This document shows positions 4,296 through 64,000 of a stretch of DNA of 64,000 bases, piece after piece. The position numbers and the translations under genes are program-made. This DNA is from a virus, in IMG/VR virus record IMGVR_UViG_3300027659_000015, positions 41,722-105,721 of that record. One strand, written 5' to 3'. Position 1 is the stretch's first letter, and every line of letters starts with the position of its first letter. Below the pieces are notes generated by a model. It was not told where the DNA came from. It saw only the letters and a program-made list of their open reading frames with translations, and searched no databases.

Positions 4296-5188
4296 CAACA
4301 AAAGTTAGTTCATCCACGTTAGCTAATACGGCGGTTACGGCCGGCACATATGGTGGTTCAATTCAGGTTCCTGTTATTACCGTTGATCCACAAGGTAGAT
4401 TAACTTCTGCAGCCAATCTTATCATCACACAAACTGCTGTATATGCAAACTCAGGTCAAATCAACGCAAATACCGCAACAGGTGTTGTACAAATTGGTTT
4501 ACCAACACAATCTGTTAATCCAGCAATATCTTATGGTTCAGGTACACAGACACCAATCATTCAAGTTGACCAATATGGTAGAATTGTTGGTATTTCAACC
4601 ACATTGATTACTGGTGGTTCAGCAGGTATTGGTGCTACATCTTTTGTGAGAACAACATTTACCGCAACTTCGACACAAACAGTTTTTTCTGCAAATTACA
4701 CAGTAGGTTATTTACAAGTCTTTGTCAATGGTGTTTTACTTGGAACTTCTGATTATACTGCATCAAACGGAACATCTATTACTTTAGGTGTGGCATGTAT
4801 CGGAGGTGAAATAGTTGAAGTTATTGCTTATACCGTTACATTAGTTAATAATCTTTCTCCATCATATACTGGTGGACAAGGTGGTTCGGCTGGTCAAATA
4901 TTATATCAGTCAGCAGCAAATACTACATCAAATACAGACGTTGGTACAACTGGTTATTTGTTAACAAGTGCTGGTTCAGGTAAACCAACATGGACAGCTC
5001 CATCCGCTTTAACAGTTAGTGCAGCTACTTCAGCCACTTCTGCTGGATCACTTTCAACTGGACTATGGTCTGTGGCAAACACATCTAATAAATTGGTTTT
5101 CTCATATAATAGTGTGGCCGTTTTCTCAGTTGATTCATCTGGTAACATGATTGCCAAAGGTGATATAACTGGCTTTGGCACTCCTTAA
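4292..5188 (+). CDS. tail fibre protein
   Basis: GTYG...IPVITVD..GRLTSA repeats; TF.AT..QT.F...VFVNGVLL domain; ATGA overlap with upstream gene. Confidence 0.7.
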   Translation: MTTKVSSSTLANTAVTAGTYGGSIQVPVITVDPQGRLTSAANLIITQTAVYANSGQINANTATGVVQIGLPTQSVNPAISYGSGTQTPIIQVDQYGRIVGISTTLITGGSAGIGATSFVRTTFTATSTQTVFSANYTVGYLQVFVNGVLLGTSDYTASNGTSITLGVACIGGEIVEVIAYTVTLVNNLSPSYTGGQGGSAGQILYQSAANTTSNTDVGTTGYLLTSAGSGKPTWTAPSALTVSAATSATSAGSLSTGLWSVANTSNKLVFSYNSVAVFSVDSSGNMIAKGDITGFGTP

Positions 5189-5198
5189 GGATAATTAA

Positions 5199-5606
5199 AT
5201 GACTATCGCACGTACTTTAGGCAACTTCGCAAACGTAGTTTTAGCGAATACTGCTATTGTTTCATCAAATCCAATCACAGCGTCATCACTCACAGATTCT
5301 AAAGGTGGTGTAAGAGCTTTACCAGTAAACACACAAAGTGGTGTTTACACATTAACTTCAGCTGATGTTGGTAAAATGGTAAGCACAACAGCAGGTGTTA
5401 CTGTTCCAGTATCAACATTCGTTGCTGGTGATAATATCACTATTTACAACAATTCTGCATCTTCCATAACAATTACTTGTTCGGCAATTACAGTATATCG
5501 TGCTGGTATAACAACAGCATCTACATCTTTGGCACTTGGCGGTAGAGGTGTTTGTACATTCTTATTCTACGCAAGTGATGCAGCGGTTGTGACAGGAACA
5601 GTCTAA
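5199..5606 (+). CDS. small tail-fibre-associated protein
   Basis: YTL...D.GK....GVTVP...F.AGD.ITIYN fibre-tip-type domain; SD AAGGA. Confidence 0.6.
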   Translation: MTIARTLGNFANVVLANTAIVSSNPITASSLTDSKGGVRALPVNTQSGVYTLTSADVGKMVSTTAGVTVPVSTFVAGDNITIYNNSASSITITCSAITVYRAGITTASTSLALGGRGVCTFLFYASDAAVVTGTV

Positions 5607-51183: not shown

Positions 51184-52257
51184 ATGAATATGAAAATTGC
51201 TGTAATTACTGACCAACATTTTGGAGCTAGAAACGACTCCGTTCACTTCTTGGATTTCTATGAGAAGTTCTACCGTGAAACATTTTTTCCTAAGATTAAG
51301 GAAGAACAGATTAAGTTCGTACTGATTTTAGGTGATACCTTTGACCGTAGAAAGTATGTGAATTTCTATTCTCTCAAGCGTACCAAAGAGATGTTCTTTG
51401 ATCCGTTACAAGAGATGGGATGTGAAGTCTTTATGTTGGCTGGTAATCACGACACATACTTTAAAAATACGAATGATGTAAACTCTGTTGACCTATTGTT
51501 AGCAGAGTATGGTAACATACATGTTATCACAGAGCCAGAAACTATCTACATTGGACCTAAACCGATTGCAATGGTACCATGGATATGTGCCGATAACTAT
51601 GAACAAACATTACAGTTTATCAAAGAGACTGATGCCACAATCTGTATGGGTCACTTTGAAATTGCTGGATTTGCTATGCATCGTGGTATGCCATCACAAG
51701 AAGGCTTAGACCGTTCCTTATTCAACAAGTTTGATTATACATTCTCTGGTCACTATCACCACAAATCAAATGCTGATGGCATCTATTATCTTGGTAATCC
51801 ATATGAATTAACATGGCAAGATTACAATGATACCAGAGGATTTCACCTGATGGACTTTTGGAAAGATGAAATACAATTCATACCAAATCCAAATCGTATG
51901 TTCCACAAAATCCTATATGACGATAAGGTAGATACCATTAAAGAGATTGATGGTAAAAACTTATCTGAATACAAGAATACCTATGTCAAAGTGGTTGTGG
52001 TCAATAAAACCAATCCGTACCTATTTGACAAGTTCATGAATAACCTGTATAATGTCAATCCAATCGACATTACTATAGCTGAAGATTTTACTGAATTATC
52101 ATTTGATGATGAAGAATTAGTAAATGAGGCAGAGGATACAATTACAATTCTAAACAAATATGTTGATGGTATCTCTGAAGATAACATTGATAACACCAAA
52201 TTAAAAAACATTCTCAAAGAACTTTACGTTGAAGCTTTGAATACTGAACAAGCATGA
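51184..52257 (+). CDS. gp47: recombination endonuclease gp47 (Mre11/SbcD-like)
   Basis: TDQHFG; LGD.FD.R; GNHD; GH.E; SGHYH phosphoesterase motifs. Confidence 0.96.
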   Translation: MNMKIAVITDQHFGARNDSVHFLDFYEKFYRETFFPKIKEEQIKFVLILGDTFDRRKYVNFYSLKRTKEMFFDPLQEMGCEVFMLAGNHDTYFKNTNDVNSVDLLLAEYGNIHVITEPETIYIGPKPIAMVPWICADNYEQTLQFIKETDATICMGHFEIAGFAMHRGMPSQEGLDRSLFNKFDYTFSGHYHHKSNADGIYYLGNPYELTWQDYNDTRGFHLMDFWKDEIQFIPNPNRMFHKILYDDKVDTIKEIDGKNLSEYKNTYVKVVVVNKTNPYLFDKFMNNLYNVNPIDITIAEDFTELSFDDEELVNEAEDTITILNKYVDGISEDNIDNTKLKNILKELYVEALNTEQA

Positions 52258-61260: not shown

Positions 61261-61291
61261 AAGGGGCTCTTGACAGAGCCCTTTCTTTTTT
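61261..61291 (+). terminator. intrinsic terminator after hsp20 (overlaps next promoter)
   Basis: AAGGGGCTCT-TGAC-AGAGCCCTTT plus CTTTTTT. Confidence 0.85.
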
Positions 61292-61298
61292 GTATAAT
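61270..61298 (+). promoter_or_regulatory. consensus sigma70 promoter
   Basis: TTGACA-17-TATAAT. Confidence 0.8.
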
Positions 61299-62520: not shown

Positions 62521-63195
62521 ATGAAAATTTCGGAGTTTAAACCAAAGAGTAACAATCTTTGGGAAGAAAAGTTTTTGCCTAGTAAAAAGATTGGTATTGT
62601 TATACGTGGTATAACAACAGGTAGATCCGTAAAACAAGATAAAGATTGGAATTTAACTAAAGATAATATAAAAGAATATCTAATAAATCCAATAGGACAA
62701 TCACACAATATCTATATTACAACTTACCAACATGATAACTTGGAAGAAATCAAAGCATTTTATAATCCAAAAAAATTAAATGTATTACCATTTCAAGGTT
62801 CCAATCAAGTAGATACAATAATAAAAGCTTTGGTTGATATACAGGATGAAGATTTAGATTTTATATTTGTAATAAGATTTGATACCGAATATTTACAAAA
62901 GGTTGATACCTTTGAATTTGATTTTGATAAGTTTAATTTTTTGTTTAGAGAAAAGGATACTTGGCAGGAACAAAATTATGTTTCGGATATCTTCTTTGCT
63001 TTTCCTAAAAAATACTTAACATCTTTTATAGATGCCATCAAAGCAGAGCAAACTAATCCATCAAGAAGTTTCCATGATTTACACAATTCATATAAGAGAA
63101 TTAAAGATATAATTGGAGAAGAAAGTATTCATTTTGTCTTTGATGGTGAACATTTTTCTGATGTTAATCCTTATTTCATAATAAAAAGAATCTAA
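62521..63195 (+). CDS. hypothetical protein, possibly glycosyltransferase-related
   Basis: D.I...RFD and SD.FF motifs; very AT-rich; start uncertain. Confidence 0.5.
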   Translation: MKISEFKPKSNNLWEEKFLPSKKIGIVIRGITTGRSVKQDKDWNLTKDNIKEYLINPIGQSHNIYITTYQHDNLEEIKAFYNPKKLNVLPFQGSNQVDTIIKALVDIQDEDLDFIFVIRFDTEYLQKVDTFEFDFDKFNFLFREKDTWQEQNYVSDIFFAFPKKYLTSFIDAIKAEQTNPSRSFHDLHNSYKRIKDIIGEESIHFVFDGEHFSDVNPYFIIKRI

Positions 63196-63199
63196 CCGC

Positions 63200-63228
63200 T
63201 TGCCAAACAATAAAAGTTCCTATATAAT
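63200..63228 (+). promoter_or_regulatory. sigma70-type promoter of the tRNA operon leader
   Basis: TTGCCA-17-TATAAT; predicted +1 near 63235. Confidence 0.75.
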
Positions 63229-63234
63229 AACACT

Positions 63235-63327
63235 ATGACAAAATTTAATAACACATTACCGACAACTCCACAGTATCACAATTGTGATGAGTCATGGTCG
63301 ACCAGGTTTTGTGTAAAGGAAAAGTAA
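63235..63327 (+). CDS. putative leaderless leader peptide MTKFNNTLPTTPQYHNCDESWSTRFCVKEK (attenuator)
   Basis: 30-codon ORF starting at the predicted +1; its 3' part carries the antiterminator arm. Confidence 0.6.
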   Translation: MTKFNNTLPTTPQYHNCDESWSTRFCVKEK

Positions 63328-63355
63328 CTAAAAAGTTCTATCAGATTCTAAACAC

Positions 63356-63392
63356 AAGACCCTAGACCTAAAAAATCTAGGGTTTTTTGTTT
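63356..63392 (+). terminator. intrinsic terminator (attenuator) directly upstream of tRNA-Ser
   Basis: ACCCTAGA-cctaaaaaa-TCTAGGGT plus TTTTTGTTT. Confidence 0.8.
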
Positions 63393-63480
63393 GGAAGTGT
63401 GGTCGAGTGGTCTATGGCTCTGGTCTTGAAAACCAGCGTATCGAAAGGTACCGTGAGTTCGAATCTCACCGCTTCCGCCA
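63393..63480 (+). tRNA. tRNA-Ser(TGA)
   Basis: Acceptor GGAAGTG/CGCTTCC; anticodon arm CTGGT-cTTGAaa-ACCAG; long variable arm; TTCGAAT loop; encoded CCA. Confidence 0.95.
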
Positions 63481-63486
63481 ATTTGT

Positions 63487-63560
63487 TTCTCGCTGGTGTA
63501 GTGGTAGCACAATAGTCTCCAAAACTATTAGTTGCGGTTCGATTCCGTAGCGGGATGCCA
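63487..63560 (+). tRNA. tRNA-Trp(CCA)
   Basis: Anticodon arm ATAGT-ctCCAaa-ACTAT; TTCGATT loop; G73; CCA end; U1:U72 mismatch. Confidence 0.9.
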
Positions 63561-63565
63561 ATTGT

Positions 63566-63641
63566 ATAGGTGTGACCCGAAAGGTTAGGGGGCGGATTGC
63601 AAATCCGCTTTATGCAGGTTCGATTCCTGTCACCTATTCCA
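63566..63641 (+). tRNA. tRNA-Cys(GCA)
   Basis: Acceptor ATAGGTG/CACCTAT; GCGGA-ttGCAaa-TCCGC; U73 discriminator; CCA. Confidence 0.93.
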
Positions 63642-63669
63642 AATGTGTTGTATTAAAACAACAGTCTGG

Positions 63670-63697
63670 TTGACAGGTCTACCAGTTCTGTTATAAT
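63670..63697 (+). promoter_or_regulatory. second sigma70 promoter within the tRNA cluster
   Basis: TTGACA-16-TATAAT with a TGn extension. Confidence 0.75.
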
Positions 63698-63704
63698 TCA
63701 TCCA

Positions 63705-63738
63705 TGAATTGAGAAATCGATTCAACTGTTCTTTAAAA
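63705..63738 (+). promoter_or_regulatory. rrn-like boxB hairpin plus boxA antitermination candidate
   Basis: TGAATTGA-GAAA-TCGATTCA hairpin, then TGTTCTTTAAAA (10/12 to the E. coli rrn boxA TGCTCTTTAACA). Confidence 0.55.
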
Positions 63739-63753
63739 ATTTTGTATCAATAT

Positions 63754-63829
63754 GCTCGGTTCGTCTATCGGTTAGGACACTGCCCTTTCACGGCAGTAAG
63801 GAGGGGTTCGATTCCCCCACCGAGTACCA
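63754..63829 (+). tRNA. tRNA-Glu(TTC)
   Basis: Acceptor GCTCGGT/ACCGAGT; CTGCC-ctTTCac-GGCAG; TTCGATT loop; CCA. Confidence 0.93.
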
Positions 63830-63837
63830 TATTAAAA

Positions 63838-64000
63838 TACATTGGGTTACCAATTCCAGTAGGTGACTTAGGAGCACGTGATGGCCGCATCATCTCGCTA
63901 AGTTTACATGAAGCCTTCCGATGGCGCTGGAAAACAAATTGGCCTGTAATGTGGAGATTGTCTTATCGGCAGACGAAGCCGTGAGAAGCCAGATAAAGTT
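63838..64000 (+). ncRNA. candidate structured non-coding RNA (may continue past the window end)
   Basis: GC-elevated non-tRNA segment with nested helices CCAATT/AATTGG, CCAG/CTGG, GACTTAG/CTAAGTT, GTGATG/CATCAT. Confidence 0.4.

Follow-up and report, generated by a model that had tools for sequence, protein, structure and literature searches.

We describe here a short element, about 160 bases long and self-contained, that heads tRNA genes in an uncultured T4-like phage and its relatives and that, as far as its sequence allows us to judge, is likely to be a ribosome-mediated (leader-peptide) transcription attenuator. In the form proposed here it would report the decoding of the phage's own tRNA set, with a presumed trigger leading to predicted read-through. 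The case is built on features that can be seen in the DNA of the phage and its relatives: the parts and their conservation, the covariation of the pairing arms, an ORF that is kept, an association with tRNA arrays and a leader whose content fits that of its array. The window that was analyzed is a stretch of 64,000 nt (positions 41,722-105,721 of IMG/VR record IMGVR_UViG_3300027659_000015), taken from a 105.7-kb virus contig and ending where the contig ends; coordinates without a locus name are positions in this window, and all window features of the element and its tRNA genes are on the plus strand. The dCMP deaminase of the phage shares about 50% identity with its counterparts in S-TIM5-like cyanophages and in Caulobacter phage Cr30, a likeness that names no host.

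The element begins with a sigma-70-type promoter, P1 (-35 hexamer at 63200-63205, -10 hexamer at 63223-63228), which reads TTGCCA-17-TATAAT and matches the consensus at 11 of 12 positions. The gene upstream of P1 ends at 63195, and no terminator separates the two. The A of an ATG at 63235 is the seventh base past the -10 hexamer and opens a leader ORF of 30 codons (63235-63327, including the stop codon at 63325-63327) that is probably leaderless. Within the ORF lie a hairpin with a 6 bp stem and a 4-base loop (63274-63289) and a run of different residues, codons 10-21 (63262-63297), that ends in the invariant Ser-Trp codons (63292-63297). Codons 24-27 contain the 5' strand of an antiterminator (arm 2, 63305-63314). 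Its 3' strand (arm 3, 63352-63361) follows beyond the stop codon, and the final two bases of arm 3 are the first two of the stem of an intrinsic terminator (63360-63392), which has a 7 bp stem (63360-63366 with 63376-63382), a 9-base loop and a U tract at 63383-63392. A terminator pattern scan of the plus strand misses this hairpin solely through its loop limit of 8. The gene for tRNA-Ser(UGA) starts at 63393, directly after the U tract, and is followed by tRNA-Trp and tRNA-Cys, the three together occupying 63393-63641. A second consensus promoter (63670-63697) appears after these genes, within a unit (63646-63738) that begins with a hairpin and closes with another hairpin and a boxA-like motif (63727-63738); tRNA-Glu (63754-63829) lies 3' of the promoter and motif, and after this fourth tRNA the array is truncated by the end of the contig. 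No promoter is found in the window between the terminator and the tRNA-Ser, tRNA-Trp and tRNA-Cys genes, so these three depend on read-through from P1 or from further upstream. The first-pass annotation of this DNA had placed the promoter, the ATG, the 30-codon ORF, the terminator, the tRNA-Ser gene and the arm complementarity at the positions given above, and we found every one of them there.

These parts suggest how the switch would work. P1 would start an RNA that opens directly with the ATG codon at 63235. A ribosome translating at normal speed to the end of the ORF would cover or unwind arm 2, the terminator would form, and transcription would stop at 63392. If no ribosome stood at the last codons by the time that polymerase had made 63352-63361, arm 2 would pair with arm 3; this pairing would remove the first bases of the terminator stem, and polymerase would continue into tRNA-Ser, tRNA-Trp and tRNA-Cys. 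The codons just upstream of arm 2 specify amino acids of phage-encoded tRNAs, and slow decoding of any such codon would lead to more transcription of tRNA genes, a feedback loop on the phage's own tRNA set. In this scheme we infer where transcription starts, that the leader is translated, how efficiently the terminator works, the direction and size of the response, and its natural trigger, for which anticodon nucleases or starvation would be candidates.

Four DNA-pattern scans and a profile search of viral contigs yielded 121 full-length family matches, 82 of them distinct, on contigs of up to about 180 kb. The 82 distinct sequences are the basis of the counts of arm pairing given below, and 70 distinct leader ORFs or variants are the basis of the counts of ORFs and second promoters; family members are related to each other, and p-values overstate their independence. 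Both hexamers of P1 are conserved across all aligned relatives. For the gene upstream of P1, the viral contig collection contains a single relative (77% identical in amino acids), on a contig that has a homologous leader as well; in cultured phage records the protein of the window's upstream gene has no match. The element itself is absent from cultured phage, in that a DNA search of 50,697 phage records matched tRNAs only. A scan of 185,579 prokaryote genomes returned 48 pattern matches and no family member, and tblastn with the leader peptide gave matches at chance level only. In Rfam no family, T-box included, reaches its threshold, the best being Thr_leader at 23.7 bits against a threshold of 55, and in eight relatives tRNAs are the sole Rfam matches.

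The link to tRNA genes holds throughout the family. Downstream DNA is available at 107 loci, and every one of them has a same-strand tRNA gene beginning 5-132 bases past the U tract; the first is Gln at 97 loci, Ser(UGA) at 7, Trp at 2 and Ser(GCU) at 1. The suggestion that the element lies upstream of tRNA arrays is thus borne out, whereas the further claim that it controls the tRNA cluster has to be narrowed. In 57 of the 70 variants the first tRNA is preceded by a second promoter placed beyond the terminator, followed in 53 of them by a boxA-like motif; in these the switch can only add to transcription of the array and is not the sole route. This promoter is missing from three lineages, namely that of the window, the L255 group and L207.

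Several further features of these regions deserve mention. In the window unit at 63646-63738, the first hairpin has covarying arms and stands just 5' of the consensus sigma-70 promoter, and the second, small hairpin precedes the boxA-like motif (TGTTCTTTAAAA). The same layout sits directly after the terminator in L001, L015, L150, L244 and others, and by analogy the promoter and boxA-like motif look like an rrn-type antitermination unit for an untranslated tRNA array. One or two more tRNA genes are found 1-2 kb upstream of the leader (L015 1811-1882, L001 2869-2943, L244 4372-4443, L255 8396-8549) and so lie outside the unit that the switch could control. The DNA beyond tRNA-Glu (63838-64000) is richer in GC; it does not encode a tRNA, and Rfam gives no match for it at E up to 1. 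L001 has a comparable unassigned stretch at 5080-5240, flanked by tRNA-Gln and tRNA-Ser. Elsewhere in the window, between a small heat-shock gene and the next ORF, an intrinsic terminator carries a perfect TTGACA in its loop with TATAAT 17 bases later, forming an overlapping terminator-promoter unit (61261-61298).

The heart of the proposed switch is the pairing of arm 2 with arm 3. In the window the two arms form 10 bp, including one G-U; arm 2 is the best complement of arm 3 in the entire upstream RNA (-14.4 kcal/mol, z -5.7 against shuffles), and when the nascent RNA is folded only as far as the 3' arm of the terminator, the antiterminator is part of the minimum-energy structure. The same holds across the family. 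When the 12 bases preceding the terminator plus its first C's were taken as the arm 3 query, the best upstream complement was the 3' end of the ORF in 82 of 82 distinct sequences, at -11 to -21 kcal/mol with a mean z of -5.4. Arms pair better with their own partner than with those of other classes: the mean is -15.6 kcal/mol for own pairs and -12.35 for swapped ones (14 arm classes, permutation p < 1e-4).

Individual lineages show how the two strands change together. One antiterminator pair is G-C in L268, G-U in L002 and A-U in L206, even though the encoded residue goes from Cys to Tyr; in L207 each arm is shorter by one base; in the L059, L222 and L265 groups the register of both arms differs and the changes match; and in L222, L255 and L221 arm 2, arm 3 and the 3' arm of the terminator jointly gain a G or C. 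On alignments, 86-87% of antiterminator cells are paired, a value that none of 500 shuffles reaches, that is above all slid controls, and that understates the helix because the MAFFT and Infernal alignments leave the L059 group in a different register. Per-sequence folds were therefore used in place of a single consensus structure for all lineages. The terminator is also well supported, with 97.4% of cells paired in relatives and four of its six pairs changed on both sides. In the test that the first-pass annotation had named, the complementarity of the arms proves to be conserved and covarying, and, as it had proposed, antiterminator and terminator are mutually exclusive: they share bases, and the covariation supports both. 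The antiterminator is the stronger of the two (mean -16.2 against -9.8 kcal/mol for the terminator hairpin), so that a free arm 2 should win.

The position of the stop codon fits this arrangement. In all variants it lies 1-23 bases past arm 2 and 29-47 bases before the terminator, so a ribosome that finishes the ORF must cross arm 2 and stays short of the terminator. In some lineages the stop is 20-23 bases beyond arm 2, and there a terminating ribosome would hinder arm 2 rather than cover it. The geometry had been likened to that of trp and his attenuators. This is correct for the end of the ORF, which lies over arm 2, and for the stop before the terminator; it is not established for the hairpin of strands 1 and 2, which would enforce termination when the leader is untranslated. 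A trp-like 1:2 hairpin is no better than shuffles (mean z -0.35), although the pairing is the minimum-energy partner in some lineages, and an untranslated leader would accordingly read through by default. The hairpin inside the ORF is a different matter. It is kept in 28 of 28 distinct variants with lineage-specific upper stems (mean z -2.9); RNAalifold gave nothing for it, the upper stems being misaligned. Possibly it serves as a pause site for polymerase.

We now turn to what the leader encodes. Fully covered arrays contain 23-32 tRNAs for 19-20 amino acids, and the leaders that head them contain 19-20 amino-acid types in only 31-44 residues. The background for leaders of these lengths is about 14 types in windows of the phage's own proteins and about 16-17 in base-shuffled stop-free ORFs. 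Of 11 lineage representatives that are less than 65% identical, 8 have the full set of 20 types, with p of 1e-4 to 8e-3 even with the invariant core fixed; against base-shuffled stop-free ORFs, leaders with all 20 types have p of 0.001-0.025. The positions of the rare residues Cys, His and Val vary between lineages: what is kept is completeness and not position.

The window lineage differs in both respects. Relatives with 6-8 kb of downstream DNA have arrays of only 12-13 tRNAs, and the leaders of this lineage contain 17-18 types; the window's own leader, the shortest in the family at 30 codons, has 17 types and a run of ten different residues (11 when extended). The first-pass annotation had drawn attention to these two counts, and both are correct, but the use of 17 of the 20 residues is not significant in itself; by count, the diversity of the window leader is mildly unusual (p of about 0.04 and 0.10 against the phage's own proteins, 0.15-0.25 under stricter nulls). 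It is the identity of the ten residues, not their number, that is exceptional. They lie wholly within the amino acids of the array at locus L030, taking up 10 of its 12 types, a closer match to downstream tRNAs than had been claimed; in 9142 windows drawn from proteins of the same phage, array-only runs of this kind reach 8 at most. Each of the 16 residues that precede arm 2 is an array amino acid, where a stretch of at least 15 has a background frequency of 0.005, and the leader residues that have no tRNA gene (Lys, Phe, Leu and Val) stand at the very start or in and after arm 2. The window's four tRNAs, for Ser, Trp, Cys and Glu, all have their amino acids in the leader. Gln in the leader tracks tRNA-Gln in the array at 4 of 5 window-lineage loci, a small sample; the exception, L080, is a window-type locus with tRNA-Gln in the array and no Gln in the leader. 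Within the phage family, arrays range from 12-13 genes (L009, L030, L105) to 27-32 (L225, L213, L233), with a similar gene order at the front (Ser, Cys, Glu, Tyr, Asp, Asn).

These comparisons also alter what the leader would be sensing. It had been read as a broad sensor of host tRNAs; the set of amino acids that it samples is instead that of the phage's own tRNA repertoire, reduced in the window lineage and complete in others. A remark that the run includes the queuosine family (Tyr, His, Asn and Asp) adds nothing. There are no tandem codon runs in these leaders: hardly any residue occurs twice in the sensing stretch, and regulatory codons are single and represent many amino acids. Sensitivity to a mild shortage of one tRNA may therefore be low.

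The lack of codon runs also bears on the best of the alternative explanations, that the element is an attenuator gauging general translation capacity (ribosome availability, coupling or inhibitors) and that the make-up of its leader is incidental. Drug-sensing leaders such as bmrB (PMC4191407) and toiL (PMC12121999) operate in this way, and the weak constraint on the peptide described below would be expected of such a gauge. A pure measure of speed does not, however, predict that leader content should follow array content, with 19-20 types where the array is complete and an array-only run where it is reduced, and for this reason we regard the general gauge as unlikely.

By comparison, an attenuator that reports on the decoding of the phage's own tRNAs would account for both kinds of leader, and it invites a more specific hypothesis. 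We suggest tentatively, and with slightly less than even confidence, that the leader reads out, and co-evolves with, the tRNA repertoire of the phage itself, so that the loss or cleavage of any one tRNA, for example through host anticodon nucleases or host shut-off, would switch on the replacement genes. Lineages with complete arrays would on this hypothesis have leaders with all 20 amino acids, and in lineages that lost tRNA genes the sensing stretch would have been trimmed to the rest. If true, this would be a general and self-tuning counter-measure of a kind described for no tRNA genes so far.

A second alternative takes the peptide itself to be the product. The element would then be a small gene for a phage peptide of 30-44 residues with its own promoter and terminator, the pairing would contribute to mRNA stability or 3' end formation, and the proximity to tRNA genes would be inherited gene order. 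That the ORF has proper start signals in all relatives and that some motifs recur could be cited for this, as could a weak likeness to the N-terminus of T4 Stp. The pattern of substitution speaks against it. The pN/pS of the leader is 0.71, a weak amino-acid constraint, and the few invariant codons (Tyr-Arg-Thr and Ser-Trp) are frozen at all three positions; what is constrained is the RNA and its translation rather than the peptide. The codon just ahead of the conserved Asp codon encodes any of five amino acids, yet it always ends in a pyrimidine, which faces a G. Within arm 2, residues vary freely as long as the RNA still pairs: replacement of Cys by Tyr or of Phe by Ser leaves the helix intact or improves it. 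Furthermore, arm 2 and the 3' arm of the terminator compete for one set of bases, and the three segments change in concert. Searches of Pfam, PHROG and NCBIfam found no family for the leader peptide. A functional micropeptide was rejected on these grounds, that is, on the weak amino-acid constraint, the frozen synonymous sites and the lack of a family in those three collections. Homology to T4 Stp was likewise rejected: the N-termini are alike by eye, whereas the family-profile score ranks Stp 84th of 2001 among its own shuffles. We consider a peptide gene improbable; by sequence, the data point to selection on the RNA and its translation rather than on the peptide.

Two observations on these coding sequences may be added. 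The leaders of L150, L124, L240, L220 and L265 share a 5-6-residue acidic Gly-Trp-Asp tail despite differing arm 2 sequences, which suggests exchange of leader 3' ends or a role at the RNA level. In the window, an ATG inside the invariant Ser-Trp codons opens a 23-codon ORF in another frame that runs into the terminator stem (63294-63365); it is without a ribosome-binding site and hence probably incidental. A similar overlapping frame occurs in L015.

That the leader is translated is suggested by its frame, which passes the test of conservation in relatives that the first-pass annotation had named: it is open in 70 of 70 distinct ORFs of 30-44 codons despite insertions and deletions, while the other two frames contain stops in 94% and 100% of them. 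Three start arrangements are found in the family. One is the leaderless ATG 7 bases after the -10 hexamer; in the others a GTG, ATG or TTG lies 26-35 bases further on, behind a purine-rich ribosome-binding site. The last alternative, a small non-coding RNA, or a structured 5' region recognized by a protein or tRNA, in which the ORF would be irrelevant, could draw on the strong promoter, the intrinsic terminator, the conserved hairpin and the invariant RNA motifs, but it conflicts with a frame kept open while the others are closed and with three independent start arrangements that each have fitting signals, and it has no Rfam family at threshold to support it, T-box included; we rate it a shade lower even than the peptide gene.

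The leaderless arrangement is not peculiar to the leader. The same spacing of -10 hexamer and ATG also precedes long genes of the same genome, for example at window position 51184, and long ORFs starting 6-7 bases after a -10 hexamer are found there, at C1:5693 of the genome and at loci L003, L006, L008, L031 and others. An identical 17-base promoter-ATG string stands ahead of many unrelated long ORFs in related contigs. Leaderless messages thus seem normal for these phages, and such starts hint that early messages of a leaderless class exist in the group.

Current discussion treats phage tRNA arrays as insurance for cases of host codon bias, host shut-off or defences that cleave tRNAs. A leader that sampled the amino acids of its own array would be a simple feedback sensor of decoding. 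With it, attenuation, known from textbooks for amino-acid operons, would extend to the genes for tRNAs. A full-text search of the literature found no description of attenuation of phage tRNA genes. The natural variants, with their matched leaders and arrays, constitute a ready-made mutational series, and if the element works as we propose it could serve as a compact sensor of tRNA supply.

The closest mechanistic parallel is provided by the enterobacterial attenuators of amino-acid operons, trpL, hisL, pheL, leuL, thrL and ilvL. The phage element resembles the trpL/hisL type in its short leader ORF, in an intrinsic terminator placed before the regulated genes, and in an antiterminator that shares bases with the terminator and has its 5' strand at the end of the ORF, so that the outcome would be set by the position of the ribosome. 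It differs in that its output is phage tRNA genes and not biosynthetic genes; in that many amino acids are represented about once each, with no tandem run of one codon; in its probably leaderless start and its 1:2 hairpin, which is not established; and in having no sequence relation to that type, the Thr_leader score lying far below threshold. T-boxes likewise tie tRNA status to the choice between terminator and antiterminator, but they do so by direct binding of uncharged tRNA, lack a translated leader and act on synthetase and amino-acid genes; unlike them, the phage element has a translated leader, as predicted here, and matches no T-box.

Leaders without codon runs have precedents. In bmrB-bmrCD of Bacillus subtilis, ribosome stalling in such a leader relieves premature termination ahead of drug-resistance genes (PMC4191407), and in the E. 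coli toiL uORF stalling in a run-free leader relieves premature termination through Rho, with toxin-antitoxin genes as the output (PMC12121999). The phage leader ORF is similarly run-free; unlike both, its output is a tRNA array and its make-up follows that array. The output itself has a counterpart in the trn operon of Anabaena PCC 7120, a long tRNA array that is induced under translational stress and is controlled at its promoter by direct repeats and the repressor TrcR, with no mention of a leader or attenuation (PMC8421152, PMC10272220). Both systems have a tRNA array as output, and for the phage we propose the same rise in expression when translation is impaired; the difference is that control in Anabaena is by a repressor. 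Overall, the sequence comparisons suggest that the element works like leader-peptide attenuators and that it would be new in lacking codon runs and in having tRNA genes as its output.
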